Virus record (IMG/VR): IMGVR_UViG_3300042298_003052
Span: 1-64,000 of that record
Length of the DNA stretch: 64,000 nucleotides
Origin: a virus
Direction: 5' to 3' (one strand)
The translations under genes were made by a program, and so were the position numbers. The notes beneath the pieces are model-generated. The model was not told where the DNA came from and made no database searches. It saw only the letters and a program-made list of their open reading frames with translations. Positions within the stretch are counted from its first letter, which is position 1; the number at the start of each line of letters is the position of its first letter. Below are positions 45,240-64,000 of the stretch, piece after piece.

Positions 45240-45971
45240 ATGACCATTACCAGTTTTTACGATTCTCAACTGAATAAAAAAGTGTCTTGGAGTGTTGTCA
45301 AAGGAACTGCCGGTCCTATTCTATCGGGAGCTGAAAATGCGATCGCTAGGGCTTTGGAATTACGCATTCTAGAGTTGGAAGTAGAAGCGTTTCTAAGAGA
45401 TGGATCCATCAGGGAAGTTAATAAATTAACTGATGACATGAGATCTATCATTTTCTCTAATATGGAAGATGAACGAAAGCATGATGAAGCCCTAAATCAT
45501 GCTGCTAATGTTTATAAATTAGCATCTCCTGACGATACTAAAGATGCACAGGCGATCGCCCAAGAATGGATTAATCACCCTGATCATCCTATTCTTAAAA
45601 CTGCGGTGTTAGAACGCAGTGTATTTTTCGTTCTTTTACCAATGTTCAGATTTCTCACCTCTGGTTGTCTAAAGGCTACCAGCCAAGATATTAGTAATGA
45701 CGAAAACGTTCATGCTGCCGCTCATACTCAGATGGCGATCGACTTAGGCTTGACAGTATCACCAAGTTTGAATAAACTGAGGAAAGATACTGTAGAATGG
45801 GTTGTAGAACATTTGGACGCCGATGGTAAGTGGGGGAATCCTGATCTCTGGAGGCGATCTTCAGATATGCTGTTTAGCAGAGGAATAGCTCCCGAGCTAG
45901 CTCAAACGTCAAGCTATTCTATGCCTGCATTTTTTGAGAAAGACAACCGTAACTTACCATCTTACGGTTAA
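45240..45971 (+). CDS. nrdB: ribonucleotide reductase beta subunit, short ferritin-like
   Basis: LE, DE.KH, LE..VFF..LP, DE.VH; follows nrdA. Confidence 0.8.
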   Translation: MTITSFYDSQLNKKVSWSVVKGTAGPILSGAENAIARALELRILELEVEAFLRDGSIREVNKLTDDMRSIIFSNMEDERKHDEALNHAANVYKLASPDDTKDAQAIAQEWINHPDHPILKTAVLERSVFFVLLPMFRFLTSGCLKATSQDISNDENVHAAAHTQMAIDLGLTVSPSLNKLRKDTVEWVVEHLDADGKWGNPDLWRRSSDMLFSRGIAPELAQTSSYSMPAFFEKDNRNLPSYG

Positions 45972-46002
45972 ATAACGTTCATAAAAAAGGAGATCTTTTA
46001 TA

Positions 46003-46722
46003 ATGCCTAATCGTGAAATCGAACTAAAGTTTCCTGTATCTAACAAATTTGTTCACGATTTCGTTAAAGGACATTCGGATACAGCTCCTACAATGCAGAA
46101 AAATCATTATTTTTCTAGCGATCAACCTAAGGTTTCTTTAAGGACTCGCGCAACGCTTTACTTACATCAGGTTTCAGGACTTGATTGGAATCCAGAAGCT
46201 TGGGTAGATGTTCATACTGGAATTAGCTACTTTGAGGATTGTCTAGATATAGAATTGATCGGTAAGAAAGGTGCTGATCCTATTAACGGAACAGATCGCA
46301 TTGAATATTCTTATTTAATGCGCGATGACGTAGGATCTATTGAAGATCTAGACAAACTCGTTATAGATATTCTTGGACATTCTGTGTTTGCCAATTGGGC
46401 TAGGATTCGATATCACGTACAAAAATACTGCCATGTGTTAAAACATGAATTTCCTGTTTATCTAGATATCAATTCTGGTTATGGTCCCATTTTAGAAATT
46501 GAAGGACCATCTGAAGAAGATATTCTCGCTTTTGCTAAAGACTCGTTTGGTCTTACTTATTACTTGACTTCTGAGAATTTGAAAGATTTTACGAGTGAAT
46601 ATGTTAGGAATTGGTCTTACTACTACGAATCGTTTTTAGATGATAAACGAGAAGTACTTGAAGCTCGTCTATCCTTAGATAAAGAATTGCTAGAAAATAA
46701 TCTCAATAACTATGGTGAATAG
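46003..46722 (+). CDS. CYTH (triphosphate tunnel metalloenzyme) protein
   Basis: EIELKF (ExExK), Q.N.YF, SLRTR, K, R.E, R.R, LD, LEIE. Confidence 0.75.
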   Translation: MPNREIELKFPVSNKFVHDFVKGHSDTAPTMQKNHYFSSDQPKVSLRTRATLYLHQVSGLDWNPEAWVDVHTGISYFEDCLDIELIGKKGADPINGTDRIEYSYLMRDDVGSIEDLDKLVIDILGHSVFANWARIRYHVQKYCHVLKHEFPVYLDINSGYGPILEIEGPSEEDILAFAKDSFGLTYYLTSENLKDFTSEYVRNWSYYYESFLDDKREVLEARLSLDKELLENNLNNYGE

Positions 46723-47611
46723 CATGAATATCGAGCAACAGTACTTACAAGCTTTGCGCGATCTAAAAAACCATGGTCAGAAAAAACTTTTGTTTAATTC
46801 TGAGCTTGGTAAAGAGGATCCTAACAAGTATATTTTGTCTTTAGTAGGACGAGTTTTCCATCACCGAACCGATAATGGTTTTCCTTTGTACACTTCTAAA
46901 TTCGTTTATTGGAAAGGTGCTATTGCTGAAATGCTTTGGTTCCTTTCTGGTAATAGCGATCTAAGTGTACTAAATGAAATGAATGTACACATCTGGGACG
47001 ATTGGGGTGGTGATAAACAAGATACAAAGCTCAAATTGCACTACACCAATATTACCAATTGGAGAGGTACAGACTTAGATCAAACTGAATGGATCTTAGA
47101 GAATTTACCTAAGAAACCATATCGTAAAAGTTATATCGTCACTTATTTGGATCCCGAAACCACTTATCAAATGGCTGATATAACTGGCCAAAAATCCGTC
47201 GATATCGTAGCGTGTCATTATTCACACCATGTTTTATGTCAGAGTCCTAATCAACTCACTCTGACAGTATCTATTAGATCGCAAGATATGTTTCTAGGGA
47301 ATCCTTTTAACGTAGCCCAATATGCTGCACTACTAGAGATGTATTGTCTGTGTCTATCTAATAGAACAGGTGAAAAATGGACCTCTGACCAACTGATTGT
47401 CAATTGTACAGGTGATTATCATATCTACAGCGATCAATTTGATCAGATTGATGAACAATTGAACAATGAGACATATCTGTTTCCTACTTTATCTATTGTC
47501 AATCGAGGACAAACGTCATTAAGAGACTTTGTTCTGTCAGATTTCAACGTGTCTGATTACAACCATTCAGGTAAAATCCCTGCTAAAGTATATTTGGCTG
47601 GAGGATATTAA
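46712..47611 (+). CDS. thyA: thymidylate synthase ThyA
   Basis: FPL.T.K, E.LWFL.G, IWD.W, ACH (catalytic Cys), RS.D..LG.PFN..QY, D.HIY. Confidence 0.92.
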   Translation: MVNSMNIEQQYLQALRDLKNHGQKKLLFNSELGKEDPNKYILSLVGRVFHHRTDNGFPLYTSKFVYWKGAIAEMLWFLSGNSDLSVLNEMNVHIWDDWGGDKQDTKLKLHYTNITNWRGTDLDQTEWILENLPKKPYRKSYIVTYLDPETTYQMADITGQKSVDIVACHYSHHVLCQSPNQLTLTVSIRSQDMFLGNPFNVAQYAALLEMYCLCLSNRTGEKWTSDQLIVNCTGDYHIYSDQFDQIDEQLNNETYLFPTLSIVNRGQTSLRDFVLSDFNVSDYNHSGKIPAKVYLAGGY

Positions 47612-48076
47612 ATGAAGGTGTTGTTATCTGTTTCTCCCAACTGGGGAATAGGCACTGTTGACGGAAATCTGCTTTATAAGAACTCTATGGATATGCAGAT
47701 ATTCAAAGGGTTGACTCAAAAGTGCGATATTATAGCAGGTCGTAAGACCGCAGAGACCATGATCGGAGGTCTAAAAAATCGTAGATGTTTCGCTATAGCA
47801 CAAAATCATATACACGGATGGACTTCTGTGACGTATGAATACGCAAAAGATGTGTATCCAGAGGCTTGGGTTATTGGAGGGGCGTTTACCGTAGATTCGT
47901 TATTACCTTATATAACAGAGTTTTGGATCTCATTTTTTCAAGACAAACCTGATGTTCCAGATAATAAACAGATCATACATTTATCTGATAAAACAGTTGA
48001 TGTTATCAATAAATGTAGAAGATTTGTTCTTTTTGAAAACCAACAATTTGTTTTTGAACGTTTAATTGTAATTTGA
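47612..48076 (+). CDS. folA: dihydrofolate reductase
   Basis: GIG..G.L, D...FK..T, GRKT.E, L.NR, WVIGG; adjacent to thyA. Confidence 0.85.
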   Translation: MKVLLSVSPNWGIGTVDGNLLYKNSMDMQIFKGLTQKCDIIAGRKTAETMIGGLKNRRCFAIAQNHIHGWTSVTYEYAKDVYPEAWVIGGAFTVDSLLPYITEFWISFFQDKPDVPDNKQIIHLSDKTVDVINKCRRFVLFENQQFVFERLIVI

Positions 48077-48079
48077 AAT

Positions 48080-48541
48080 ATGGGCGGTTCATCTTCTAGA
48101 AACAAAGGTAGTGCAGCAGAACGATCGCTAAGAGGATTTTTCTCAGATCATTTAGGCTGGTATCTACAAAAAAATGGATCTCAGTCTAATTTAGGAGGTT
48201 ATGATTGCACATTATTAGACGTACCTAATGGCCGTTTAATGGTACCTTTTGCCTTAGAGTTTAAGCATCATAAGACTCCTAACGTACAAGCTTGGTGGAA
48301 ACAGACAGTAGATCAAGCTCAAAAGACTAAATTTATACCCGTATTGTTTCACAGAGGAGACAATCAACCATGGAAGATTGTAATACCATCATATCTTCAA
48401 ACAGGTCGTAAACGTGAGGTAGACCCTTTAGATTGGAATTGGTTAGTAACACTGGAATCTAAAGATCGCCCCTACGGATTGACTTGTTCTTTACTTTTTG
48501 TGGAGTTATGTAGAGAAAATGCCATAAACTATACAAATTGA
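48080..48541 (+). CDS. Holliday junction resolvase (Hjc-like PD-(D/E)xK)
   Basis: SR.KG..AER, G.D, EFK, WW.Q...QA, P.L..R. Confidence 0.75.
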   Translation: MGGSSSRNKGSAAERSLRGFFSDHLGWYLQKNGSQSNLGGYDCTLLDVPNGRLMVPFALEFKHHKTPNVQAWWKQTVDQAQKTKFIPVLFHRGDNQPWKIVIPSYLQTGRKREVDPLDWNWLVTLESKDRPYGLTCSLLFVELCRENAINYTN

Positions 48542-48585
48542 TTCAATCGTGTTAAGATCATATCAGTTAGCAAGGAGAATCCTAT

Positions 48586-48948
48586 ATGACTAATGTTATC
48601 CCTCTAGAACTCGTCGATCGAACCCCATTGGTGAATGTAAACTACAGCGGTAGTCCTCTACAACTGTCATCTGAAGCCTTGAGGAACATGTACGATCTAG
48701 GTTTATTGACTGCTAGACCGTATGCTATTCTTGCGATCCTTTTTGATGGCGTAGGAAAAGATGAAGAAGAGGCATTTGACATCGAGGACTTTATCGATCG
48801 CTGGGAAGGAACAGAAAACGATAAAGGTAAATCGAAACGATTGAAAACTGATGATATTATCGTGGCACTCAATAAGTTGCAATCGCTAGGTTACGGTAAG
48901 GTGAAATTGGTGCCTCATGTGAAACTAGACATAGATTCTATTCTGTAG
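48586..48948 (+). CDS. hypothetical protein, possible winged helix
   Basis: AGGAGA RBS; AL.KL...G motif. Confidence 0.55.
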   Translation: MTNVIPLELVDRTPLVNVNYSGSPLQLSSEALRNMYDLGLLTARPYAILAILFDGVGKDEEEAFDIEDFIDRWEGTENDKGKSKRLKTDDIIVALNKLQSLGYGKVKLVPHVKLDIDSIL

Positions 48949-48993
48949 TAGAATAAGAGTCGTGGTAGGTTGAAAGGTGTTGTATTAATCCGT

Positions 48994-49030
48994 AGCTGGT
49001 CTAGACCTATCTCTAGATCAGCTTTTTCTT
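48994..49030 (+). terminator. intrinsic terminator
   Basis: AGCTGGTCTAGA-cctatc-TCTAGATCAGCT followed by TTTTCTT. Confidence 0.7.
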
Positions 49031-49045
49031 AAAGGAGTTATATCT

Positions 49046-49747
49046 ATGCAATATATGGGAAGCAAAAATAGATTGGCTAAACATCTGTTACCTGTAATGT
49101 TACCTTATCGAAAGAATTCTGAACAATGCTGGATAGAACCGTTTGTTGGTGGTGCCAATATGATCGATAAGATAGCGGGCGATCGTCTTGGTAATGATAA
49201 TCATCCTTTTCTGATCGCACTATTACAAGCTGTATCTCAAGGATACGATCCCCCTTCTGTTGTTACTAAAGATGAATACTATCGCGTAAAAAGTAATCCT
49301 AATGATTACCCTAGTGAATATGTTGGTTTCGTTGGATTTCTTTGTAGTTTTGGTTACAAATGGTGGGGAGGTTATGCTTTTAACAAAGAAGGTCGGAACT
49401 ATGCTGAAAAAGGGCGAAATGCTTTATTAAAACAAGCTCCTAATATTAAAGGCGTTAAGTTTCAATGTCAGAATTATCTAGAGTTAATCATACCTAATAA
49501 TAGTATCGTATACTGCGATCCTCCGTATCAGAAGAGTTCTGGTTATCATACCGATTTTGATCATCAGATATTTTGGGATTGGTGCAGATCGTTAGTACAA
49601 AATAACAATATCGTGTTTGTTAGTGAGTATTCAGCACCGGATGATTTTGTTTGTACTAAAGAAATTGTGTACGAAACCAATCTAAATAAAAATGGTAAAT
49701 CACCAAGAATCGAACGACTATTCCTACATAGGTCTCAGATCGCTTGA
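49046..49747 (+). CDS. D12-class N6-adenine DNA methyltransferase
   Basis: YMGSK, EPFVGGAN, YCDPPY, FVSEY. Confidence 0.88.
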   Translation: MQYMGSKNRLAKHLLPVMLPYRKNSEQCWIEPFVGGANMIDKIAGDRLGNDNHPFLIALLQAVSQGYDPPSVVTKDEYYRVKSNPNDYPSEYVGFVGFLCSFGYKWWGGYAFNKEGRNYAEKGRNALLKQAPNIKGVKFQCQNYLELIIPNNSIVYCDPPYQKSSGYHTDFDHQIFWDWCRSLVQNNNIVFVSEYSAPDDFVCTKEIVYETNLNKNGKSPRIERLFLHRSQIA

Positions 49748-50814
49748 GGTTTACCGTATAGCCAACCTTGACCATATATAACACCATTATCGATTAACCA
49801 TGAAGCGTCTTCTTCCTTTTCTATACCTTCTGCTATTATTTCCATATTCATAGCTTTTGCCAACGTTATCACAGTTTTAACAACTGATTGATTGGTTATA
49901 TCTTTACTAACACCATCTATAAAGGAGCGATCTATTTTTATATAGTTAGCAGAAGATGTTTTTAGTGAACTCATATTACTTTCTCCTGTGCCAAAGTCAT
50001 CTAGTAATATGTCATGTCCTAATAATCGCAATCTAGATAATTTTGGAACAATAGGTTCTTCAAGAGCATATCGTTCAGTTATTTCCAACTGTAGACGACT
50101 TCTGTTTATATTGTACTTATCTATAATATGATTGAACTGACACTCGAACATAGCCGTACATACTGTAAGAGGAGACAAATTGATGGCTATGTGTAGATGC
50201 TTTTTAAGATCATCATTAGACCATTTTTTTAGAATAATACAAGCTTCCTCTACTACCATGTTACAGAAACTTACCATCAGTCCTGTAGTTTCTAGAACAG
50301 GTATAAAATCATTTGGATACCTAATGCGATCGCCGTCTAACCATCTTACCAAAGCCTCATAACCTACTATCGTCTTATTGTTTATATTAACTATAGGTTG
50401 AAGATAAAGACTAAATTGTTTGTCTATTAAAGCCTTTTCTACATCGTTCATTAACTTTTGACTGTCAGCGTTTAACATTATTCTTTTTATAAGTTCCAAT
50501 GTTATTATAAATTCAGACGAATTTACTTGTCGTATATCGAGATTATATTCTCCCTTTTCAGTGTAATATTTTCTACTTCTATAAATATTTTTATTCTTTA
50601 TGAAATCGTTGTATATATCGTATACACTATCAGAATCTATTTCAATATTAGAGTAAACACATTTTATAATGTTTTTGTTCACTCTATATAAACCAAAAGG
50701 TTTATCTATAGTGCTTATAATCGTCTTATAGTCTTTTATGTTTTTATAGAGCGAAAATAATATGGCGATCGCAAATAATATTAAAGACCCTTCTATACTA
50801 ATCAGCAACGGCAT
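49735..50814 (-). CDS. membrane-anchored EAL-domain c-di-GMP phosphodiesterase
   Basis: QP, EAL.RW, P..FIP, INLS, LEITE, DDFGTG.S, KIDRSF, AEGIE, QGW; N-terminal TM. Confidence 0.92.
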   Translation of the reverse strand: MPLLISIEGSLILFAIAILFSLYKNIKDYKTIISTIDKPFGLYRVNKNIIKCVYSNIEIDSDSVYDIYNDFIKNKNIYRSRKYYTEKGEYNLDIRQVNSSEFIITLELIKRIMLNADSQKLMNDVEKALIDKQFSLYLQPIVNINNKTIVGYEALVRWLDGDRIRYPNDFIPVLETTGLMVSFCNMVVEEACIILKKWSNDDLKKHLHIAINLSPLTVCTAMFECQFNHIIDKYNINRSRLQLEITERYALEEPIVPKLSRLRLLGHDILLDDFGTGESNMSSLKTSSANYIKIDRSFIDGVSKDITNQSVVKTVITLAKAMNMEIIAEGIEKEEDASWLIDNGVIYGQGWLYGKPQAI

Positions 50815-51722: not shown

Positions 51723-52100
51723 ATGAAAAGATTAACAACGATCGCTCTTTTAACACTAATATTTGCGATCTTCCCACATCAATCTGTTAAGGCACAAGAA
51801 TCGTTTTTAAGATTAGATAACCACTGTGAAGGACAACTGTACTTTCACAAGACTGTTTGCAAAGAAGTTTACCAGGATTACATAATTTGGTACGTTCTCC
51901 AAGATAACACGCTAGTAGGTATTATTGTATTCGATGATGCTTATAGCCTAAATGTCATTGAATCAGGAGAAAACTCCTATGTCATATTCTCAAAGGAAAC
52001 CAGTCAAATCATTACACAATCAGAAAACGGTTTCAGTACGATCTCACCCTATCGTGAAACATTTGAATATATTTTAAGTGCGATCGCGTCAGTACAATAA
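51723..52100 (+). CDS. secreted/periplasmic hypothetical protein
   Basis: Signal peptide MKR-hydrophobic-VKA|Q. Confidence 0.6.
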   Translation: MKRLTTIALLTLIFAIFPHQSVKAQESFLRLDNHCEGQLYFHKTVCKEVYQDYIIWYVLQDNTLVGIIVFDDAYSLNVIESGENSYVIFSKETSQIITQSENGFSTISPYRETFEYILSAIASVQ

Positions 52101-55100
52101 TCCGTTCGGTCGTTTCTGTTCAGTTAATACTTGGAATACTGCGGCTCTGACCTTCTGAGAAAGATCTCTTGCTGCCTTATTATCTTTCTCAGGATTATTA
52201 CCATCAGAGTTGATCGTGATGGGTACGGTAACAGACGTGCTACCCCCGCTAGGAGCCTTGATAGCAGGCGTACTAAACGAACCGCCTACGACACCCCCAT
52301 TCTTAAAGTTAAGCACGTTCTCGTCCACGCCATAGCGCTTAGCGATCGCTTGTTGCTGTCTGTTCAATACCCATTCTCCAGGTGATACCACAGCTAACCT
52401 AGCTTTTGGATTACCTTCGCGTTTTAATGCCTGTCCTATAGCTTCTGTAGAAGCTAACTTATCCAATGTTGACTGCGATCTTCCTATAACACCACCTTTT
52501 GCAAAGTTCTCTATACCTAAACCTGTATCAGTTTTTATAACACCACCATCTTTGAAGAACATCCCTAGTATCGTGGATAATAAAGACTGGAATACACCTC
52601 CTATACTGAATCCTCCTTTAGATACCGCTGTGCTACTAGAACCTGAAAATACACCCATCACAACAGAACCGAGTTGAGCCCCGCCGCGATCTGCTCCAGC
52701 TTCTATAGCACTTTGTATAGACTGAGCACCGTTTTCAAATGTAAGATCAAAACCACCTAAGTCAAATAAACCTTCAGAAATGGTACCTAAAGCGTTTGGT
52801 GTTTGTATGGATACAGCCGCTTGTTGTATTGCCTGAGCCCCTAATTGTAATGAAGATAAAACCATCTCACCACCTAATCTTAATGACGCTGAGGCTTGTT
52901 CTGCCCCTGTTGTTAACGTAACATCTTCTGTACTAGCACCGAATAAAGATTTTCCATATTCTGTTAGACTTGGATCTCGTATTTCACCAGTAGAAGGGAA
53001 TAAGTAAGAACTATAATCCATTGCGCCTTGTAACAGTGGATTATATCTAGGGGTCTGCATTAGTACATTAGGATCTTCTTCGGGCGATCGCGATCTGCTA
53101 GTTCCAAAAAGCATTTCTATAATACCGTTACCAGTATCACTAGATATTCCAGCAGCACCACCGAATATACCTGCAAACAGATTATTGGTTAGCATTTCTG
53201 CTGCCAAGTTCATCAGATTATCTATTAAACCGTTGACAAAATCGTTAAAGGCTTCTCCTACTGTTTTGGTACCTTTCATAAGATCGCTGAATAGTCCTTG
53301 AACTGGACCTCTTACGTTCTTTATGACATCGGGTAACATTGAGGCTTCTTGCCTTATCTGATCCATTTTGATGTCGTTTATCTTTGATAAGGATTCGCTC
53401 ATAGCTTTGAAACCCTCATCTGTGAGTTTCCCAGCATTTTTTAGTTTTTCTAATTCTAATATGGCATTTTGATAATCTAAGCGTTGCATATCCAACAAGA
53501 ATGGTAACCGCTCTTGTTTCATAGCTTCCGTTGGACTAGCACCAAATGCGCCTAGATAAGCGTCTTGTGCTCCCATTAAATCTGTTACTCCTCCAGGGCC
53601 AACAAGAGGATTTCTTGATTGTTCTATTTGATCGGCTCTAACTTGTAAAGCTTGTTCTAGCTCTAATGTTTGTAGTTTTAATTGGGCCGTTTCTTCTATT
53701 AATAAACGACTTCGTTCTCTAGTCTCCTCTGTTAGACCCTTACTACCTTCGTATAAATCGAATATTTGACTTTCTAAATCTTGTTGTATTTTAAGAGCTT
53801 CAATTTCATAAGACAGGTCTCTAGCGTTTCCTGCTTCCCCTGTTCTATTTAATAAAGGTGTAAGAGCTTCCACATTAGCAGCTCTTTGTTCTAACAAAAA
53901 TGATGAATTGTTAAGTCTTAATTGTTCAGTATTTCTATCAATATTGTAACCTAATATCTCTAACGCTAAAATTTGACGTTTAATAGATTCTGCTAATAGC
54001 TGGTCATAGCGATCTCTATCTAATCCGCTATTTAACTGTTCTTTTAAGCCAAATTGATACTCTTTCTCTTTTTGTATTATATCAGCAGCATCAGCTTGTT
54101 TTTCTAACTCTTCTGCCAGCGCCTGCTCTCCATCATTTCTTAACAATTCAGCCTGTTGTCTTAAATTTTCACCAGTTAGTTCAGTTAACTGATTAATAAA
54201 CTCCATATAGCGTCTTTCTTCTTCCATCTTGTATTCTTCTGAAATTTTTAGTAAAGCCTCTCCTTCCATAGCGGTTAGATCAGCTAAGTTCTTTCTAAGA
54301 ATATCTATAAGTGGTTGTTTCTGAGATATTATCTCTCTGAAACCCTCTTCAATTCGTCTTACATCTTCTTCTTTGGCTCCAGCCTCTATAAGTTGGTTGG
54401 GCATGGTTTCTAATAACTGTGTTACGGCATCTATGTCGTTTTGAGCATCTTCGATTTGTCGTTGTAATTCTATACGACGATCTTCTATATCTCTAGATGC
54501 CATATCGAGATCATATTCAAGTTGAATTTCTGGCGTCATCCTGAATTCTGGTATACTTTGATACTTGCGATCTCTGTCTTGTCTTTCTTGTTGTAGCTTA
54601 GCATCTTCCGTCCCTCTCTTAGCAGTTATTCCTTCTCGATTAACTTCAGAAAACATACTATCTATTTGAGCGTCGAATCTTTCATCTGCTAACGCTTTCA
54701 TTTGTTCAATCAATTTTATTTGATCGTTAGCGTTCTGTTGTAGCATGTTTACATACTTTTGATTTTCTGATAACAATTGGTTAGAACTTTGTGTATAACT
54801 ACTTACATCTAAAGTTGTAGCACTACTACTGGTTGTTGTCGGACGCGATCTGTTGATATAGCCTGTTACATTACTGATAGCTTGGGTAGTATATTTATTA
54901 TCTGGTCGTAATTCTTCTGCTCGTCTAAAATTGATCAATGCTGATTGGTAGTCCTTTTTCTCAGTCAGAGCATAACCTTCGCGCATGAATCTTTCAAATT
55001 GCTCTTTCTCTGACATGAGTTCATTCATACCGATGCCGCTATCACGAAGGAATTGTTCAGCTCGTTGACGGTGATCGCCTTGTCTGAATCTCGGCGCAGC

Positions 55101-58100
55101 GTTTCTTACGGTAGTTTGATTACTATCCTTACGATTCCAATAACTTTCTCCAGCTTGACCAGCTAATATTGCTGAATAGGCGTGTCGTATATCATGTTCA
55201 CCAGGTCTGAAACCGCGATCTAGCAAATATCTTTCTATAGCAGGCATTTGTTGAGCTATACTTTGTTGGGTATTGGTTCCATATTTACGTTGGTTATCAG
55301 GACTGAATTGGATCAAACCCTTATATAAATTATTATCACCTCCTCGTATGTTAGGGTTGAAAGATCCTGCTGATTCCCAAGACATAAGAGCGGCAAATTC
55401 TCTTGGATCTAATCCTAAACGTTGAGCTGCGGCTATCATAGCTTGTGCCCCAGCAGGGTCGCTTTGAACTCTTTCTGCGGTTCTTACCGTGCCACCCATA
55501 GGTATTCTACCCGGACCCATACTAGCCACTCTAGAGGCCACTGGGGCGTAGTTTCTAAACATCTCTACCCCAGACTGTTGAGGCGTGCTCTGAGCTGTTC
55601 TAGAGGCCGGTTGTGATATAGGATTAATATTGACATTTACGCCCTGTAAGTTACGTGCAACTCCACCACCGGCGTTCATAGCAGCTAACCACTGTTGAGC
55701 GTCTACGAACTGACCATTAACTTTCACCTTCATATCGAGATGGTGTTGTATTACTTCTCCAACGAGCTGTCCCATCGATACATTGGTGTTCTCTCCTATG
55801 CCTATACCTAAGGCTTTTTTAACAGATTCTAATTCTAAATGATTAAATTGCAAATCAATAGGTATGCCTTTAGCGTCCTGAGTCGTTATTCTCACTTGGA
55901 CAGCATTACCTCTATCACCCTTTTGTTCAGCTATGTCTATTACCCTAGCCGTACCAGAAAAAGGAGCTGCTACATCAGCACCTCTTCCTCCTCCTACTTT
56001 TGAATCCCAGTCTATACCAGCATGATATTCTTGTCGTCCATTTCGTGTTCTACCAGCCCTGAACGATTGTCCTTCAGTAGGTTTATAACTTACTAATGAC
56101 TCTATAGATTGCCCCATCAATGGAGAAGCTACGTTTCTACCATTTGTACCTTGACTACCAATAACACCTTGATCTATTTGAGGTATACTTAATGCAAATT
56201 GTTCATTTTGTCGAAGAGTATTGAATAATTGATTCATAACATCCATTTTCTGTTTTAAGAAATCAGATGTGCTTTTTAATTGTTCTCCTATGACATTGAT
56301 AAATCTTTCTAATATGTTCATCATGCCACTGAAGTGATCGGTTCTCAATTTACCCATAGTACGAGTTATCGTATTACTGGCATTAGCAACTTTGCGATCG
56401 TTTTCAAATTCCTTAAAACTGTGAGCGATTTCTTCAGTTTGTTGACCCACCTCTATCAACATATCTTCCAGTTGACGACCCATTTGCCATAATTGTTCTT
56501 CTAACTGTCTTTTAGTAGTTTCTAGTTCTGCTACTAATTGATCTGTTTCTAGTCCCGTTTGTTCAAATTTTTGTCGTACTTCTACTAAATTTGTGAGGGT
56601 CTTGCTTAAAGAAGAATCTTCTCCTATATTATCTATGGCAGCTTGTATATCAGCCGCCGTAGCATTCATTGCTAAATTAGCGTTTTCTAATGCTTTTATG
56701 TATTCAGGATCATAAGCAATAGTTTCTAGTTTTTGTAAAGAATCTCGATTTATAGCTATTTTTTCAGAGGTCATTTGTTGTTGAACAAGATTCTGTGTAC
56801 CTTCTAACAAACCTGAATTACCAGGAGCAACAGATCTCATCAAAAGAGCGTTCTTTTGTGCTGATCTCATTTCCAAATTATAATAGGCGTTTTCCATTTC
56901 TGCGTTAACAAGTCTAAATCCTCTAGCCAATAGATCAAGTCTGGTTACTGTATTTGCTATACCGGAATTTATTTTATCAATAAGCGATTTAGTAAGTTTT
57001 AAATCTGATTCAAGTGTTGCAATATTGCCCTGCAATGATTCTCTACGAATATTATCTTCTTCAGAATCTCCCAGTCTTGCTAGTTCTTCTTTTCTTAACT
57101 TAATAGCAGATTTGATATTCTCTTCTGATAACTGTAGGTTTGCTAGTTGTTTACCAACGGGGATATATAATTTTTCTCTTTCTGCTATCAGATTATTTAT
57201 CTGTTCGTTTAAGTCTCTTTGTTTTTCTACATCTTCCCTAGAGGTTCCTTGGAGTTCTTGTTGAGCACTCTGTAACCGCACATCCAGATCTATTATTTCT
57301 TGTAATTGTTGACCAGGTTTATTACCAGGATACAAAGTGGTCCTGGCCTCTTCATATATTTTACCTGAATAAGATTGCAGATCGTTTATAGCTATGTCTG
57401 CCTGTTCAGCTTTCACATCCTCCCATGTCCTGCTTAAATCTAAACCTATATTTTTCAAACCTCCTAAAGCTAAACCTATTGGGTCTGTATAATCTCGAAT
57501 GTCGTTTCCATCAGTTATGTTACCGATAAAACTTTGTGTTCCTCTTTCAAATATACGTGAAGCCTTATCCCCTATTAGACCACCAAAGAACGTATCTTCA
57601 AGTAAAGATTCTCCACTGATTAATCGTTCTAATCCTGAACTTATCCCTATACCATCTTTAAACGCTTCAAAAAACTTTTTAGCGGAATTACTTATATCGA
57701 CTATCTGTTTAATTCCTGTTACGGATTTCAATACGTTTCCGTATGATTCTCTGCTACCATCTATATTACTAACCGATTCAATAATATCTCCGACGTAACC
57801 TCCTAGTCCACCACCAGTAAATAATTCTTTGATGGCTGTTACACCTCCAGACTCCTTAAACACCTTAAAACTGGGTTGTTCATTAAACTCTTTTGTTTTT
57901 TGACGAGCATCTTCTAATGTTTTTGTATAATCTTCCCACGCTTTTTTATTTGAGTCAGCAAGATCCTTAGCACCTCCGGAAGCGTCTCCGAAACCTTTAC
58001 TGAAAATCTTAAACACGTCCGTGGCCACAGTTATGACAGCAAACCACGTTAAGAAACTCTTACCAAATGTTATTAATTCTTGCTTCATTCTAGTAAACAA

Positions 58101-61100
58101 ACCAGAAAACGATTCGCCAATCAACGCGATCGTTTGGTTCATTCCTGCAAATTTAACAAAAAATTTGGCTAGTTCTTGTACGAGGGTAGCACTTATTGTT
58201 ACCAACAAAGCGGTAAACACGACGCTAAGTGCTACAACATTTTCTCTTAGTATTTGAATACCTTTGGTTGCTATGTTAAGTCCGACAACTCGAATAGGGA
58301 TTGTGGTGTTACCATATCCTTGTTGGAATAACGTAATTTCATTATTTAATTTATTTATGGCCGTTTGGGCGCTTCGTGCGCTACCTGACACACCCATAGC
58401 GGTTTCAGCACTTAGTTGTTGTGCAAATTTAGGTAATAGATCTTCGGCCATAACTTCTCCGGCTTGCATCATTTTACCTAATTCTTGTGTAGTAACACCC
58501 ATAGCCCGCGCTGCTACAGATATAGACCCCGGTAAAGCTTCTGCTAATTGACCTCTTAGTTCTTCCGCAGAAACTACTGTCTTGTCCATCATCTGACTCA
58601 GTGCAGTGAAAGCTTGCTGTTGTTCCTCTGGAGTCATTTGATAAACTACAGCAGCTTGTGATATAGCTGAAAATATTTGACGAGTGCCTTCGCCTTCTAG
58701 TCGTGTACCTTGAGCACTAGCTCCTAATTGGGCGAAACCTTGCATACTTGATTTCAAGTCTCCTCCCAAACTTATAACTTTATTCCTTATCAAATCTATG
58801 TTTTTAGCCCCTTCGCTCGCTGATCCAGAGACAAAATTAATTGTCGTGGCCATGTTTTCGAGTTCTACAGCAGTTTGAAAAGCGGCTTCTTCAAATGAAA
58901 ACAATGTTCCTACGAGTGGTACTACAATATAATTGAAAAACAAAAACCCTTTGGTGATGCTCATCATAGCAGGAATATTTTGAGACAATCCCTCAAATAC
59001 TTCACCCAACGATCTACCTAATTTTGGTACAAACGTTGCCATGTTTTTCATAGATTCCATAGAATCCAACATGAATGCGTATGCAGGCCCTATAACAGGT
59101 ATTTCAGCTTCCGGGCGTTCTCCTGAAACACTGAATGGCATAAAAGATTCTTCTGGTGGTGTTTTTGCCCATTCTTTTATGTCATTTACGGTTTTTGTTT
59201 TAAGACTTTTTATACTTTCCCTAACATAGTTGATACCATCAGATATACCGTTAGATATACCTTCACTTATAAACCTACCTATCTTTATTGCCCATTCAGG
59301 AGGGCTTTTTATATCAAATGTGCTATGTGTTATATCTATAACAGCTTCTGCCATATTCATGGCGGCATTAGTCGCTTCTCTGCTACTATTATTTATGCCT
59401 ATTGCTATACCAGACCCTAACTCAGATCCTATATTTTTACTAGCGGGTAATATATTTTCTGTTTTCGTGTTGTTATAACGCTGATAAGATCTTATTATAT
59501 CCCGAGTATATTGATGAGAGAATCCATAGGCGTCTCTTTCTAGTTTATTGATGTAATGTGGATTTATATCAATACCTTGTTCTTTTGCAGATTTTTTTGC
59601 AAGTTCTACAGATCCTGCTATATTACGAGCATATTCGCGATCCGATTCTCTATTATATGACGGTGTTAAAAGAAGATTTCTTGAGTAAGGATCATTTATC
59701 TTTTGAAATCCAACTTGTGCGGCATGTCGTATCTCATGTACTATTGTATCCATTGCTTCAAACAAGGAAATTATATCTTCAGTTATATTAGAATATTTTT
59801 TGTTTACTGTTTCGTAAGCTAAATCTAACTCGTCGTTATAATCATTATAAATATCATCACTAGTGTTGTTATTTAAACGTTTATATACCTCTCTCACTTC
59901 ATCTTCAATAACTTTGAGACTAATAGGTATATCAAGACCTTTTATATCATGTAAGGATTCCAACGCCTCTTCGGTTTCATCATCCAAAAAGATTGTGTTG
60001 TATTCTGGTAAATAGGCTCCTCCTGCTCTAGTTCCTAATAATTGCATAGATGCATTTTTAGCTGTGGGCATCTCTTTTACTTCTACATCGGAAAGCGCTG
60101 CTATTTCTGTAACTAGTTCTTCAAACACTTTTCTTGCTTTAGGCGTAATGTCGTCTAAAGTATCTATAATTTCTCCTATATTTCTAGTTACTTCGTTAGA
60201 CATGTCTTCGTCAAATGAATCTTTTGTATTTCGATCAACGGACCATAACGGTTGTATTTTATTGTTTTTAACTTCTTCTGCTTTTACATCGATCGTGTTT
60301 GTATGTGTTTTTAACAAATAAGCTTGTTGATAAGATTGACTTTGACGTAAACGATCGAATCTCATAACAGGCCCAGAATTTCCGGGTTCTAAACCTTTTA
60401 TTGTCTCACCTAGTTCGTGTACTCGTGCGATAAGAGACGGGGTTATACCTTCTTCTAGATAACGAGTAAGTATTTCTCGTATCTCGTTAGATTCATCTAG
60501 ATAATGAGGACTGAAATGCCCTTTCACATTAGGTATAATAGCCTCTTTTTGTCCAGTAAATCTCTTTAACGGATCTCCTTCTCCAATTAAAGATATTACG
60601 TCTGATTTAATAGCTTGAAATGCTCCTAGTAAGGGAGTACCCATACTTAAAGCTTCTGAAATAATTCCTATATTTTTAAGTATTTCTTGGGCTTCTCTAA
60701 CTATAAAACCTCCAGCAGAATGTCCTACAAAACCTATTTCAACATCTGGACGTTCTTGTTTAACGGCATAGGCTTGTTTAGCAAGACGGAGAGCTTCTTC
60801 ATTAATACCCTTTCTAACAGCCTTCATGGGCATAATGATCGCATCCATTACGACCCTTGTCAAACCTACATCATTTAAGGTTCCAGAAACATCAAAGTTT
60901 TTATTCTCGAAAGGGATCGTGTGAGTCCCTTGAGGGATCATCGGTTTTAGTTTGTCTGTTATTTCGTTACTGATTCTACCTTTTGTGCCAGTAAAACCAG
61001 ATGATACAAATATAATCTTTTTAGCATCGGCAGGGATTTCATGAACGACAGGATGAATGTCAGAATCAGGAGGTTCAGTTAGAACTCGTCGAGCGTTAGA

Positions 61101-63998
61101 ACGTACATCTTCTTTGTACTTGGTGACAATAGTTTCATTGGGATAATTAACAATTCTTCCTACTGCCGTTCTTGCGCTCTGAACGGCTTCTGAAGTGTTC
61201 TCTAACTGACCGGCAAGAGTTAATGCCTCATTAATAGAATCTCTCAATATTGTCAACTCGTCTTTTATTACTGACATATCAAAGGCTTTTCTTAAATTGC
61301 CCTGATACATATCAGCCATCAAGTATAGATCTTCTGCAAGCTCTTTCAAAATTGAGCTTATGTTCAAAACTTTTTTAACTGCATCAGAATTTGATTTAAT
61401 ACCTTTAATCAAACCTGCTACAACCATTTTACCAAAATACTCAGTTACTTTGGAAGGACTTCTAGTTTGAAGACCCTTTGCCATCGGGTCAATAATTCCA
61501 GTCTCAACAAGACGGGTAGCCTCAGCTTTTAAAGCATTAAAACGATCGCTGAATCCGACAGGATATCCATCTATAGTTTCTTGACCTAAACTTCTAGTTA
61601 AATCAGGACGTTCTATTTCTCTAGTATTGATTTTCTCATTAGCTCTATTTTTGGCTTGAGTAGCCTGACCTTTAGCAGCTCGTGCTAAGTTTGTAAATGG
61701 TGTAGTAGCACGGTCCCCTAAAACTTTTTGTAAATCGTCTATAGCTTTCCAAGCTTCGTCCGCAGTTTTAATAATTTCAGCAGCAGCTATTTTTTGTTCT
61801 TCTCTAGAATATCGATTTTTTTTATTCTCCACTATACGACGAAGATCAGCAAAATCTTCACTGATCTTTTTAACCATTTTTTGGTAGTCAGGCGGCGGTT
61901 GAGCAGCAGTTAACTGACGAACTTGTTGTTGGGATAATGAAGGTAACTCAGCAAAGTTACTAAAATCTTGAATAATTTCAGCATCAATAATGTCAGCATC
62001 TTGAGATCGAATATCGTTTAGAAAACTAGCTAATTCTCTAAGTTTATTCTCTATCTTAACGATCTGAGATTTAAGATTTGCTAACTGATTAGGTGCTAAA
62101 GGTTTCATACGATCTTGTGGTGATATTGCGACGATCGCCTCATTAACCTCTGTTAATAATCTATTGACATATCCTTGATCATTACCAGTATCATCTCCGG
62201 CTAACAACTTTATTTTTTGAATGATCGATTCATCTGGTTCACTAGAAACTAGAGCCGTCTGTATACTAGTAATCATATCTTTGGCCGCACTTAATTTTTT
62301 ACGGGATCCTTCTATAAATTCATTGGCAGCAGGCTGTGCGCCAGATAGTAGTTTGCCAGCAGATTTAGTTAGTTGAGCAAGAGCTGTTGCGGCAGAGATA
62401 CTTTTTTGAGCTAATTCAGCAATTGCCGCCGCTCCATCTTCAATACCAAGTGCGGAAGCTCTAGCAATTTGTTCTGGACCAATATCAGATATCTTTTCGA
62501 TAATGGGAGCATTAGCATCAAGCGAATCAGGATCTCCAGGTACTCTACGCATTATTCTATTTACTGCCGCCACAAGACGTGTTTCTGCCGCGATGGCCAT
62601 CGCTTCACCTGTTGACTCAGCGATATTAGTAAGACCCTCGCCAACGCCTTGCAAGAAAGATATGGCCATTTCAGAACCAATTGCAACGGCTTCCTCCGTA
62701 GACACCGTTACAGATGATCTTACCTCTCTAAGATCCGGTAGAGGTGTAGGTGGAGGTGATATGAGATTAGCGACGTAAGATTGAGTACCTAGAGTTGCTT
62801 GAGATTGTCTTGTTTTACGCTGATTCCGTTCCGCGACACGCTGAGACGTTTCAGGATCTAATCTAAGATTAGGTTGTACCTGATTGTTTATAAAATCAAC
62901 TAGCGTTGATGATATCTTCGTAGGATCAGGTGCGCGATCGAATGTACGAAGACCACCCAGTTCACCACCCTCTTCATAACCTTGAGCGACTAAGGATTCT
63001 AAATCTAATCCTTCGATCAGTTCAAAACGTCCGAGTTCTTTAGCTATAACTCGTCTAATTCCTTCCCATGCTTTGCGAATACCTTCTTTACGATCTTCTT
63101 CAATCGCTTTGGCCCATTCTTCCAGAGCCTTTTCTTGTTCTTTTGCTGACAATTTTTCAAACTCAGGCATTTTATCGGGTTTGATTATACTACGTCCATA
63201 ATCGATAGGAACCACCTTTCCTTCGTCTGATACAAAAACATTACCTGGATGATAGTCTCCGTGGGTCACACCTTTTTCATGAAGTGCTCTCAACGATGCT
63301 CCAGCCTGTTTAGCATACGCTGATACGTCATCTTTTGTCATATCTTTATTAGCAAGGTAGTCTCGACCTTCTTGACCTGCTATTGCTCGTTGAATAATAA
63401 AATCATCGCCCGACGCAAGAACGTCTGGAGCGACACCTTTAGCAATTTCCATAGCCTGAGCCTCACTAGCCATGCTGACAGCATTTTTAGCTAGTTTGTA
63501 AACAGCATCTTTGTTAGCATTTATAAAAGCGATACCTTTTGCCCCCTGTCCTAATATATATGCCATATTAGGATCTATTTTAGCTGATGGCTTACCCATA
63601 TCCTCAAGGGTCTTATTCATACCGCTAAGACGTTCCATCCAAGGTTCTGTAGCAGGTTGAGTATATTTCTTGGTTTGCCACTTTGTTTTAGGTGCATCAG
63701 GATCTCTAGGTGTTGGTCCTCGCATCCCGGTGGGAGGACCAACACCCTCTTTATAAGCTTTATTAAATATATCTTGTATATTTATCCCTTCAAGCAAAGG
63801 CATTTTTCCTTCTTTTACTAGCTTTAAAAGAAGCTCCATTGTTTTTTCGGTTCCTTCAGGAACCTTTGCCAAAATTCGCATAAAAGCTTCTTCGATTCTT
63901 TCTGGTGCTCTTTCGGCATCAGCTTTTATTTGTTCTTTAGAAGCGTTTACCTTGGCAGCACCTAAATCGATAGTTTTCATGCTTCCATCTTCCATCAC
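52089..63998 (-). CDS. giant multi-domain tape measure protein (probably continues beyond the window)
   Basis: Tape-measure core ALSQM..K..VSAEEL.GQL.E.LPG; two SP(S/P)-G-rich TMP motifs; long coiled coil; F..GG tail motifs; embedded enzyme domains. Confidence 0.88.
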   Translation of the reverse strand: MMEDGSMKTIDLGAAKVNASKEQIKADAERAPERIEEAFMRILAKVPEGTEKTMELLLKLVKEGKMPLLEGINIQDIFNKAYKEGVGPPTGMRGPTPRDPDAPKTKWQTKKYTQPATEPWMERLSGMNKTLEDMGKPSAKIDPNMAYILGQGAKGIAFINANKDAVYKLAKNAVSMASEAQAMEIAKGVAPDVLASGDDFIIQRAIAGQEGRDYLANKDMTKDDVSAYAKQAGASLRALHEKGVTHGDYHPGNVFVSDEGKVVPIDYGRSIIKPDKMPEFEKLSAKEQEKALEEWAKAIEEDRKEGIRKAWEGIRRVIAKELGRFELIEGLDLESLVAQGYEEGGELGGLRTFDRAPDPTKISSTLVDFINNQVQPNLRLDPETSQRVAERNQRKTRQSQATLGTQSYVANLISPPPTPLPDLREVRSSVTVSTEEAVAIGSEMAISFLQGVGEGLTNIAESTGEAMAIAAETRLVAAVNRIMRRVPGDPDSLDANAPIIEKISDIGPEQIARASALGIEDGAAAIAELAQKSISAATALAQLTKSAGKLLSGAQPAANEFIEGSRKKLSAAKDMITSIQTALVSSEPDESIIQKIKLLAGDDTGNDQGYVNRLLTEVNEAIVAISPQDRMKPLAPNQLANLKSQIVKIENKLRELASFLNDIRSQDADIIDAEIIQDFSNFAELPSLSQQQVRQLTAAQPPPDYQKMVKKISEDFADLRRIVENKKNRYSREEQKIAAAEIIKTADEAWKAIDDLQKVLGDRATTPFTNLARAAKGQATQAKNRANEKINTREIERPDLTRSLGQETIDGYPVGFSDRFNALKAEATRLVETGIIDPMAKGLQTRSPSKVTEYFGKMVVAGLIKGIKSNSDAVKKVLNISSILKELAEDLYLMADMYQGNLRKAFDMSVIKDELTILRDSINEALTLAGQLENTSEAVQSARTAVGRIVNYPNETIVTKYKEDVRSNARRVLTEPPDSDIHPVVHEIPADAKKIIFVSSGFTGTKGRISNEITDKLKPMIPQGTHTIPFENKNFDVSGTLNDVGLTRVVMDAIIMPMKAVRKGINEEALRLAKQAYAVKQERPDVEIGFVGHSAGGFIVREAQEILKNIGIISEALSMGTPLLGAFQAIKSDVISLIGEGDPLKRFTGQKEAIIPNVKGHFSPHYLDESNEIREILTRYLEEGITPSLIARVHELGETIKGLEPGNSGPVMRFDRLRQSQSYQQAYLLKTHTNTIDVKAEEVKNNKIQPLWSVDRNTKDSFDEDMSNEVTRNIGEIIDTLDDITPKARKVFEELVTEIAALSDVEVKEMPTAKNASMQLLGTRAGGAYLPEYNTIFLDDETEEALESLHDIKGLDIPISLKVIEDEVREVYKRLNNNTSDDIYNDYNDELDLAYETVNKKYSNITEDIISLFEAMDTIVHEIRHAAQVGFQKINDPYSRNLLLTPSYNRESDREYARNIAGSVELAKKSAKEQGIDINPHYINKLERDAYGFSHQYTRDIIRSYQRYNNTKTENILPASKNIGSELGSGIAIGINNSSREATNAAMNMAEAVIDITHSTFDIKSPPEWAIKIGRFISEGISNGISDGINYVRESIKSLKTKTVNDIKEWAKTPPEESFMPFSVSGERPEAEIPVIGPAYAFMLDSMESMKNMATFVPKLGRSLGEVFEGLSQNIPAMMSITKGFLFFNYIVVPLVGTLFSFEEAAFQTAVELENMATTINFVSGSASEGAKNIDLIRNKVISLGGDLKSSMQGFAQLGASAQGTRLEGEGTRQIFSAISQAAVVYQMTPEEQQQAFTALSQMMDKTVVSAEELRGQLAEALPGSISVAARAMGVTTQELGKMMQAGEVMAEDLLPKFAQQLSAETAMGVSGSARSAQTAINKLNNEITLFQQGYGNTTIPIRVVGLNIATKGIQILRENVVALSVVFTALLVTISATLVQELAKFFVKFAGMNQTIALIGESFSGLFTRMKQELITFGKSFLTWFAVITVATDVFKIFSKGFGDASGGAKDLADSNKKAWEDYTKTLEDARQKTKEFNEQPSFKVFKESGGVTAIKELFTGGGLGGYVGDIIESVSNIDGSRESYGNVLKSVTGIKQIVDISNSAKKFFEAFKDGIGISSGLERLISGESLLEDTFFGGLIGDKASRIFERGTQSFIGNITDGNDIRDYTDPIGLALGGLKNIGLDLSRTWEDVKAEQADIAINDLQSYSGKIYEEARTTLYPGNKPGQQLQEIIDLDVRLQSAQQELQGTSREDVEKQRDLNEQINNLIAEREKLYIPVGKQLANLQLSEENIKSAIKLRKEELARLGDSEEDNIRRESLQGNIATLESDLKLTKSLIDKINSGIANTVTRLDLLARGFRLVNAEMENAYYNLEMRSAQKNALLMRSVAPGNSGLLEGTQNLVQQQMTSEKIAINRDSLQKLETIAYDPEYIKALENANLAMNATAADIQAAIDNIGEDSSLSKTLTNLVEVRQKFEQTGLETDQLVAELETTKRQLEEQLWQMGRQLEDMLIEVGQQTEEIAHSFKEFENDRKVANASNTITRTMGKLRTDHFSGMMNILERFINVIGEQLKSTSDFLKQKMDVMNQLFNTLRQNEQFALSIPQIDQGVIGSQGTNGRNVASPLMGQSIESLVSYKPTEGQSFRAGRTRNGRQEYHAGIDWDSKVGGGRGADVAAPFSGTARVIDIAEQKGDRGNAVQVRITTQDAKGIPIDLQFNHLELESVKKALGIGIGENTNVSMGQLVGEVIQHHLDMKVKVNGQFVDAQQWLAAMNAGGGVARNLQGVNVNINPISQPASRTAQSTPQQSGVEMFRNYAPVASRVASMGPGRIPMGGTVRTAERVQSDPAGAQAMIAAAQRLGLDPREFAALMSWESAGSFNPNIRGGDNNLYKGLIQFSPDNQRKYGTNTQQSIAQQMPAIERYLLDRGFRPGEHDIRHAYSAILAGQAGESYWNRKDSNQTTVRNAAPRFRQGDHRQRAEQFLRDSGIGMNELMSEKEQFERFMREGYALTEKKDYQSALINFRRAEELRPDNKYTTQAISNVTGYINRSRPTTTSSSATTLDVSSYTQSSNQLLSENQKYVNMLQQNANDQIKLIEQMKALADERFDAQIDSMFSEVNREGITAKRGTEDAKLQQERQDRDRKYQSIPEFRMTPEIQLEYDLDMASRDIEDRRIELQRQIEDAQNDIDAVTQLLETMPNQLIEAGAKEEDVRRIEEGFREIISQKQPLIDILRKNLADLTAMEGEALLKISEEYKMEEERRYMEFINQLTELTGENLRQQAELLRNDGEQALAEELEKQADAADIIQKEKEYQFGLKEQLNSGLDRDRYDQLLAESIKRQILALEILGYNIDRNTEQLRLNNSSFLLEQRAANVEALTPLLNRTGEAGNARDLSYEIEALKIQQDLESQIFDLYEGSKGLTEETRERSRLLIEETAQLKLQTLELEQALQVRADQIEQSRNPLVGPGGVTDLMGAQDAYLGAFGASPTEAMKQERLPFLLDMQRLDYQNAILELEKLKNAGKLTDEGFKAMSESLSKINDIKMDQIRQEASMLPDVIKNVRGPVQGLFSDLMKGTKTVGEAFNDFVNGLIDNLMNLAAEMLTNNLFAGIFGGAAGISSDTGNGIIEMLFGTSRSRSPEEDPNVLMQTPRYNPLLQGAMDYSSYLFPSTGEIRDPSLTEYGKSLFGASTEDVTLTTGAEQASASLRLGGEMVLSSLQLGAQAIQQAAVSIQTPNALGTISEGLFDLGGFDLTFENGAQSIQSAIEAGADRGGAQLGSVVMGVFSGSSSTAVSKGGFSIGGVFQSLLSTILGMFFKDGGVIKTDTGLGIENFAKGGVIGRSQSTLDKLASTEAIGQALKREGNPKARLAVVSPGEWVLNRQQQAIAKRYGVDENVLNFKNGGVVGGSFSTPAIKAPSGGSTSVTVPITINSDGNNPEKDNKAARDLSQKVRAAVFQVLTEQKRPNGLLY

Positions 63999-64000
63999 AA

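Follow-up and report, generated by a model that had tools for sequence, protein, structure and literature searches.

A giant tape measure protein of a lake-water phage with predicted enzyme modules on both sides of its ruler core

What does a long-tailed phage do with a single gene of more than five thousand codons? On the current view, tape measure proteins (TMPs) are rulers, sometimes with a wall hydrolase. The gene that raises the question lies in a stretch of 64,000 nucleotides, called the window throughout this text, that comprises bases 1-64000 of the IMG/VR record IMGVR_UViG_3300042298_003052, a 139,448-bp virus record from lake water with direct terminal repeats and a completeness rating of 100%. 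An open reading frame (ORF) on the minus strand, 52089..63998, stays open for 3969 amino acids up to the window end, its 5' end open, and an earlier note on this DNA had read it as a TMP, probably longer than the window shows, that carries at least five enzyme-like domains and doubles as an injected effector polyprotein. The guess about length was right: in the whole record the frame reaches an ATG at genome position 67307, 15 codons behind an in-frame TGA (67353-67355), and the full protein has 5072 amino acids. We call this protein P0002 and its window part P0001 (residue n of P0002 is residue n-1103 of P0001). Seven enzyme-like domains were found in this one ORF. We are highly confident of its identity as a giant, enzyme-carrying TMP and of its domain content; the delivery of active enzymes by this TMP is nearly an even call, which we place slightly on the doubtful side. 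The best explanation as a whole, toward which we lean cautiously, is a TMP that reached 5072 codons through the addition of enzyme modules on either side of a ruler core and that is delivered at infection. The features that carry the argument, from the N-terminal side to the C-terminal side, are as follows.

52089..63998, minus strand: window part of the gene for the 5072-residue TMP (3969 amino acids); the gene runs on to genome position 67307
63708..63998, minus strand: C-terminal part of predicted kinase-like domain 1 (P0002 ~975-1200), which straddles the window end; its DLG motif lies inside the window
62928..63605, minus strand: predicted kinase-like domain 2 (P0002 ~1235-1460), with a Gly loop, Lys1271, HGDYHPGN at 1349-1356 (Asp1351, Asn1356) and Asp1369 in DYG
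60408..61040, minus strand: predicted alpha/beta hydrolase domain 2 (P0002 2090-2300), with Ser2197 in GHSAGG (2195-2200), Asp2245 and His2264
59448..60170, minus strand: zincin-like domain (P0002 2380-2620), with HEIRH at 2524-2528 (window 59724-59738) and Glu2590 and Asp2592 in ERDAY
58893..58949, minus strand: hydrophobic segment 1 (P0002 2787-2805), directly N-terminal to the core; Kyte-Doolittle score 1.78 (scoring window 19)
58326..58886, minus strand: tape measure core (TMP_3, P0001 1705-1891), matched by Pfam, PHROG and solved TMPs
58182..58253, minus strand: hydrophobic segment 2 (P0002 3019-3042), directly C-terminal to the core; Kyte-Doolittle score 2.38
55653..56165, minus strand: M23-like peptidase domain (P0002 3715-3885), with His3762, Asp3766, His3823 and His3856, and Asp3858 at the usual place of the last His
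55038..55475, minus strand: lytic-transglycosylase-like domain (P0002 ~3945-4090), with Glu3978 in WES, and GLIQF

A frame this long cannot arise by chance. One could suppose that the giant ORF is an artifact of assembly or gene calling that joins separate genes, as its source is a metagenome assembly and the equivalent parts in Aphanizomenon phage vB_AphaS-CL131 (CL131) are three ORFs; we find this scarcely credible, for independent contigs encode uninterrupted relatives of 4121-5767 amino acids, and single contigs of other runs span 56484-64000 with all listed indels keeping the frame. The latter contigs come from four other lake runs and were aligned to the stretch at 90% likeness; they may stem from related phages. 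Those that span 56484-64000 do so with few differences (contig X10, for example, has 32 substitutions and one 21-nucleotide insertion), and the indels listed in the four runs comprise an 81-nucleotide skip, gains of 21 and 24 nucleotides, and a +1 and a -1 change separated by three bases; that each of them preserves the frame speaks for selection on a single long ORF. Twenty-four lake-water metagenome runs contain 79% or more of the words sampled from 54001-64000; three of these runs are possibly the source, and no RNA run is listed among them.

The evidence that this is a TMP begins with the core, which the earlier note had placed at 58900-58250 and which Pfam bears out: TMP_3 matches P0001 1705-1891 at E 9.2e-23 (81.4 bits; cut-off 41). 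There are also matches to fourteen PHROG families of tail proteins, 13 carrying the annotation tail length tape measure protein, and the solved TMPs 9cuy_W, 9ndy_F, 8vjh_Q and 9zd7_4 match the core stretch at E 7.5e-19 to 1.8e-10. Upstream of the gene, on the same strand, lies a tail-tube-like gene (Phage_tail_2, E 6.2e-4; phrog_820, E 9.7e-5), and between the two are a 286-residue ORF without a family match and two small ORFs at the chaperone position, which themselves gave no family match and hold no XXXYYYZ slippery heptamer in their overlap. The core, the place after the tail tube gene and the two small ORFs, and N and C termini that are conserved with other giant TMPs support its predicted identity as a TMP.

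Where the earlier note had seen one kinase-like domain, at 63560-63100, there are two. Both copies hold HGDxHxGN, at P0002 1094 and 1349, the catalytic loop of copy 1 (HGDYHAGN, 1094-1101) lying just beyond the window end. Pfam places copy 1 above its cut-offs for Pkinase (E 8.2e-8, 32.4 bits against 31.7) and ABC1 (24.9 against 22.9), and copy 2, on P0001 190-270, above that for ABC1 (24.9 bits against 22.9). When the two copies are aligned with six relatives at 22-30% identity, G31, K47, D127, N132 and D145 are invariant (8/8); these are, in that order, the Gly-loop Gly, the beta-3 Lys, the catalytic Asp, the Asn and the DFG-type Asp. The resulting profile matched 1944 PDB sequences at E <= 0.01, twitchin best (E 1.9e-13), with TP53RK (Bud32/PRPK) at E 4.4e-12 over positions 19-198 of 239. 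An AlphaFold2 (AF2) model of copy 2 (P0001 122-377) has a predicted local distance difference test score (pLDDT) of 83 and a predicted template modeling score of 0.77, and Foldseek returned at least 500 PDB matches for it at E <= 0.001. All of the matches listed are kinases; among them, ROCK kinases stand first by E-value, the template modeling scores (TM-scores, by query/by target) are highest for Rio2 (1zar, 0.53/0.51; 1zao, 0.52/0.49; 6fdn, 0.46/0.46), and PRPK scores 0.40-0.44 by query and 0.46-0.48 by target. Because only ~90 helical residues follow the DFG-type Asp, the model describes a compact kinase with a short C-lobe, and both copies are predicted compact kinases close to Bud32/PRPK and RIO. 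They share with those families a compact fold of ~230 residues, a full ATP (adenosine triphosphate) site and the short C-terminal lobe; those families also supply the best matches over the full length by profile and by TM-score. They differ in sequence, with only 16-20% identity, and in setting, the kinases here being part of a predicted virion protein and those families belonging to ribosome or tRNA biology.

The kinases also bear on a view in which all modules only breach the envelope and the kinases are small-molecule or lipid/sugar kinases of the Kdo/WaaP/APH kind, not host-takeover protein kinases. We judge this improbable: weak Pfam matches to Kdo, WaaY and APH do stand alongside those to Pkinase, ABC1 and RIO1, and the HGDxHxGN loop is common to families of the Kdo/WaaP/APH kind, but both the profile and the fold find their best matches in protein kinases and Bud32/RIO, and ATP is not known to be available in the periplasm. 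A tblastn search with the kinase pair gave no match among 50,697 GenBank phage records. A kinase pattern scan of viral contigs found eight loci, one of which (L028) holds a 5767-residue ORF equal in length to the relative P0117; the same scan of species genomes found 22 loci, mostly short catalytic-loop matches, the best being a 792-residue ORF in a Leptolyngbyaceae metagenome-assembled genome. This ORF (contig L006, 721-3099) holds the closest kinase relative found in species genomes, with 32% identity over query 28-147, and does not belong to a giant TMP.

An alpha/beta hydrolase had been claimed at 61030-60450, and here too the protein holds two copies. Copy 2 has the GHSAGG elbow, and in its alignment with 22 short homologues the triad S113, D161 and H180 is kept in at least 90% of the 23 sequences, G111 and G116 being invariant. 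The aligned members match Thioesterase, Lipase_3 and Abhydrolase_1 in Pfam (9/23 each), PGAP1 and Cutinase (7/23 each) and DUF676 (5/23), with a best E of 3e-6, and the best solved match of the profile is the cutinase-like CE5 esterase 4psc (E 3.9e-4). Copy 1, located beyond the window at P0002 ~395-660, can be aligned with copy 2 in register (E 5.6e-6), GTSGG falling on GHSAGG (Ser) and GDMDP on GEGDP (Asp). The two are paralogous predicted Ser-Asp-His alpha/beta hydrolases, "lipase" being only one of the ways to read so generic a triad. Stand-alone homologues of the hydrolase (P0077-P0157, 260-490 residues) often have a Cys-containing basic start and a hydrophobic, Ala/Gly-rich segment ahead of the catalytic domain.

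The fifth N-terminal enzyme-like domain is the zincin. A motif scan found a single HExxH in the whole protein, at P0002 2524, and one HExxH in 5072 residues, taken alone, could be a chance result. The surrounding 240 residues, however, were found again in five other proteins, in two copies each in two of them, and H195, E196, R198, H199, Q202, F205, E261, D263, A264, Y265 and F267 are invariant in all six aligned sequences, which are 19-25% identical. The AF2 model (pLDDT 65.7 overall, 70-92 in the core) lays out a helix, three short strands, a long helix with HExxH (157-202) and a later helix with ExDAY (254-290). A wide VIA structure search placed ERAP1 first (Z 7.5, 120 residues, root mean square deviation 3.4), and 11 of the 12 matches listed with at least 115 residues aligned are zinc metallopeptidases (M1 aminopeptidases, BlaR1, lugdulysin), the twelfth being a transporter (root mean square deviation 9.7). 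A PDB profile search gave one match, at chance level, and the ESM Atlas gave leads only (DUF3920, SprT-like and Zn_peptidase_2, at cosine 0.91-0.93). We read this as a real, conserved domain, predicted to be gluzincin-like, for which the proof of fold is incomplete.

On the C-terminal side of the core stand two predicted wall enzymes. The transglycosylase that the earlier note had placed at 55440-55040 holds up well: catalytic Glu54 and GLIQF are invariant in the alignment (7/7), and the profile of these seven sequences matches 9udh_A at E 1.1e-20 and, at E 9.1e-11, 9k2v_E, whose deposited name is "Internal protein"; in Pfam, the SLT match of the 5072-residue protein itself falls below cut-off. 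In the M23-like domain, His48, Asp52, His109 and His142 are invariant (6/6), the profile of six sequences matches solved M23 peptidases at E 7.2e-5 to 0.013, and the relative P0003 has a precomputed PF01551 match.

Wall enzymes in a TMP have precedents. T5 pb2 is a TMP with an M23 domain, and mycobacteriophage TM4 and its relatives have TMPs with Rpf or peptidase motifs; like these, our protein is a ruler of the kind that leaves the tail, with peptidoglycan-cutting domains toward its C-terminal side. Unlike them, it has ~2600 extra residues N-terminal to the core, with two kinases, two hydrolases and a zincin, none of which is of a peptidoglycan-acting kind. Nor does size alone set it apart: Thermus phage P23-45 has a TMP of nearly equal size, gp96 (5002 residues, annotated with a metallopeptidase domain), so that the size is not new and the cargo is. 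The two proteins share no segment match at E <= 0.01, and a motif scan of gp96 found no HExxH and two GxSxG, one of them beside an M23-looking PHLHYE motif; gp96 appears to be mostly spacer.

The P23-45 tail is longer than 800 nm (PMC9022992), and a long TMP alone therefore suffices for size. It might then be argued that the domains in our protein are decayed remnants that now serve ruler length only, for a tail of ~760-860 nm. We hold this to be very improbable, because relatives with 19-30% identity all keep the catalytic residues and because gp96 has none of these modules at E <= 0.01.

The relatives of the protein show how the modules are arranged. In a first collection, a word-indexed search with residues 1-2700 reduced 6125 candidates to seven relatives of 4121-4653 residues, which are mosaic: residues 2328-2605, the zincin, are absent from P0003 to P0006. 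For a second collection, residues 2050-2640 were searched exhaustively; 217 representatives passed E <= 0.001, and the 150 best-scoring of them were taken. Among the 148 proteins newly listed, the TMP core occurs in 69 (in 65 of the 71 that are at least 2000 residues long), and among all 155 collected relatives in 76. In these core-bearing relatives, the hydrolase is confined to the N-terminal side of the core (76/76), as are the kinase (6/6) and the zincin (2/2), and the M23 (9/9) and transglycosylase (11/11) domains occur only C-terminal to it. A leader, MAxxLGxLILELxLD... (P0002 1-130, genome 66918-67307), is common to 43 of the 76 core-bearing giant proteins, which makes the enzyme modules insertions that separate a conserved TMP start from the core rather than a plain N-terminal addition. 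Pfam matches on ten giant relatives comprise TMP_3 (in nine), M23 (in two), and Phage_lysozyme, SLT_3, GH19, Pkinase, ABC1 and Lipase_3 (in one each). In our reading, the modules are interchangeable cargo across a large family of giant TMPs. A tblastn search with the N-terminal 3000 residues returned 1158 records, and among the 30 listed the core alone was matched; Rhodobacter phage RcXuper and its relatives, considered as kin, have only the core in common and were rejected (the RcXuper TMP has ~1900 residues).

One cultured relative is available for comparison, the cyanophage CL131, the only hydrolase match among the same GenBank phage records. CL131 is likewise a long-tailed phage of fresh or brackish water with hydrolase copies upstream of its TMP gene, but those copies are unfused: they are in the separate ORFs gp047 (330 residues) and gp048 (1811 residues), directly upstream of the TMP gp049 (2131 residues). 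CL131 gave no kinase or zincin match, and its core no match to ours at E <= 0.01. Its tail measures 361 nm (Table 1 of PMC6293099), which comes to 0.169 nm per residue for gp049 alone.

This arrangement gives some footing to an explanation in which the N-terminal enzymes serve the producer cell, in assembly, as a lysis esterase, or as a zincin that cuts the cargo off the ruler, and in which the N-terminal half is removed from the mature tail. Proteolytic processing occurs in other TMPs, lambda gpH and T5 pb2 among them, the zincin here is placed exactly between cargo and core, and in CL131 the hydrolase proteins are separate ORFs and the tail length fits the TMP alone. We nonetheless think this explanation unlikely. 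P0003 to P0006 lack the zincin and still have their cargo fused, and the zincin therefore cannot be a family-wide processing enzyme; this phage encodes two endolysin-like proteins apart from the TMP; and all 76 core-bearing relatives preserve the fusion to the one protein that is known to exit the tail.

The lake contigs add hints that modules come and go within populations. One joint, from 59457 to 60336 with 11 other letters between (contigs X4 and X6, the shorter side only 30 letters), amounts to a net loss of 289 codons that coincides with the zincin module, and another, from 55625 to 56157 (contig X15, shorter side 51 letters), skips 177 codons that coincide with the M23 module. Contigs also depart from the reference at module edges (56157, 55511-55549, 56480 and 54843). 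These joints hint at in-frame forms without the zincin or the M23 module and at cassette exchange in lake populations; the zincin-skipping joint may equally come from a related phage like P0003 to P0006. Parts of 52001-56480 are covered by short, differing contigs only. Across this interval, the four lake runs have many short contigs whose summed depth is several times that over 56484-64000, as is expected if several related phages share the C-terminal part.

How might such a protein work? A TMP occupies the tail tube, its C terminus pointing to the tip, and is released ahead of the DNA. In the protein described here, the two hydrolases, the two kinases and the zincin all lie between the conserved leader and the core, and the M23-like and transglycosylase domains come after the core and its flanking hydrophobic segments. 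The protein would exit the tail C terminus first, so that the two wall enzymes would meet and open the peptidoglycan; the hydrophobic segments would enter the membrane, and the N-terminal modules would then follow. The hydrolases and the zincin may act on envelope lipids or proteins, and the kinases, because kinases need ATP, would act on the cytoplasmic side, ahead of any phage gene expression. With wall enzymes C-terminal and kinase, hydrolase and zincin N-terminal, the order of modules fits ordered delivery. The earlier note's injected effector polyprotein thus retains its TMP identity, its N-terminal enzyme modules with intact catalytic motifs and a supporting module order; that the N-terminal enzymes are injected and active is what we infer from these sequence features.

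Several points weigh against this picture. The 155 proteins were gathered by likeness either to the first 2700 residues or to the stretch from hydrolase to zincin, they are related by descent, and their counts are not independent; the rule of module order may reflect one ancestor rather than repeated selection. The Pfam matches of hydrolase copy 2 itself are all below curated cut-offs (best DUF676, E 0.0031, 17.5 bits against 20.3), as are the M23 matches of the 5072-residue protein itself. The M23-like domain that had been claimed at 56130-55690 has its profile match, but the usual last zinc-binding His, two residues after His142, is Asp in five of the six sequences. The HExxH zincin claimed at 60050-59480 likewise keeps HExxH and ExDAY in every relative aligned but has only middling fold support: Foldseek found nothing at E <= 0.001 for the model, and the VIA matches, with Z <= 7.5 throughout, all fall below 8, the range of common chance arrangements. 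The fit of the CL131 tail to a TMP of 2131 residues alone means that cargo need not belong to the ruler. Finally, the tail tube is 4 nm wide (PMC9022992); at that width, folded domains of 25-30 kDa cannot fit three abreast and would have to be stored unfolded and refolded later. Either the domains are stored unfolded or, as CL131 suggests, the cargo lies outside the ruler. Our protein sharpens an old puzzle, in that globular domains are unfolded in a 4-nm tube or else part of the TMP alone measures the tail; the part from the core to the end is 2453 of the 5072 residues.

Outside the TMPs, the closest parallels are the polyvalent proteins of Iyer et al. (2017), which the earlier note had also invoked. 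As described in PMC5512222, these have many enzyme domains per polypeptide and are thought to enter the host with the DNA, and they include peptidases and kinases without the usual C-terminal lobe; "tape measure" is absent from the main text of PMC5512222. Our domains do recall them in that several effector-type domains (seven enzyme-like here) share one phage polypeptide. None of a set of polyvalent marker domains, however, is among the Pfam matches listed at E <= 1, and the polyvalent kinases carry an insert between the catalytic His and Asp, whereas HGD is contiguous here. Two further comparisons concern single modules. T7 gp0.7 is a phage kinase that modifies host proteins; unlike the kinases proposed here, it is synthesized after DNA entry and not delivered ready-made. 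The Tle proteins of type VI secretion systems are alpha/beta-hydrolase lipases delivered into the target cell envelope, and our hydrolases are of the same general kind, their weak Pfam likeness to Tle1-like and Tle3 domains (E 0.02-0.03) being not significant.

A literature search of listings and abstracts, with few subscription journals, brought up no TMP described with kinase or lipase-like modules. If the proposed delivery is true, siphophages would be able to inject proteins in a way that resembles what P1, T7 or N4 do with their internal proteins, and host takeover or anti-defense could begin before transcription. A broader reading, which we put forward only tentatively, is that in a large, mostly uncultured group of freshwater phages the TMP would be an ordered delivery vehicle, with wall enzymes out first and swappable cargo (esterases, compact kinases, zincins) last; ready-made kinases would reach the cytoplasm before the DNA and disable host functions or defenses, and the cargo would evolve by cassette exchange like polymorphic toxins. 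The strict module order around the core and the hints of lake forms that lack a module make for direct, testable predictions.

Three further features complete the window part of the protein.

61053..62810, minus strand: spacer (P0002 1500-2085) without a family match, 46-67% identical in four giant relatives
54897..54989, minus strand: possible single TPR hairpin, placed by the earlier note at 55000-54850 (P0001 3004-3034; Pfam TPR_2 E 0.041, below cut-off), common to P0013 and P0004
52092..54830, minus strand: C-terminal 913 residues, 94% identical to P0008; the Gly-rich end is common to giant TMPs

The remainder of the genome is, on its sequence, that of a complete 139-kb long-tailed phage from lake water with a lambda-like tail tip. 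PHROG searches with 10 proteins of the 70-89 kb region found no terminase, portal or capsid. The tail tip genes, at 19279-27524 on the plus strand and including a J-like protein (E 6.9e-171), lie ~25 kb from the TMP gene and not directly downstream of it; a plus-strand block at 36091-49747 separates them from it and holds a DnaB-like helicase, a polymerase, ribonucleotide reductase, thymidylate synthase and methyltransferases. Downstream of the TMP gene the order is unusual: a 164-residue ORF comes first, then an EAL-domain protein, then the convergent replication and nucleotide-metabolism block. The EAL-domain protein (window 49735-50814, minus strand, two genes downstream of the TMP; Pfam EAL, E 4.8e-59) is likely a cyclic di-GMP phosphodiesterase, judging by its family. 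The two endolysin-like genes are at window 9069-9863 and genome 78121-78867, both on the minus strand (phrog_181, E 1.4e-28; phrog_894, E 4.4e-21). From CL131, the Leptolyngbyaceae match and the lake habitat, our guess at the host is a cyanobacterium. The first part of the window, 1-7600, has a G+C content of 53-55%, against 35-41% elsewhere in the window, and its genes match tail-fiber, head-decoration and virion structural PHROGs.

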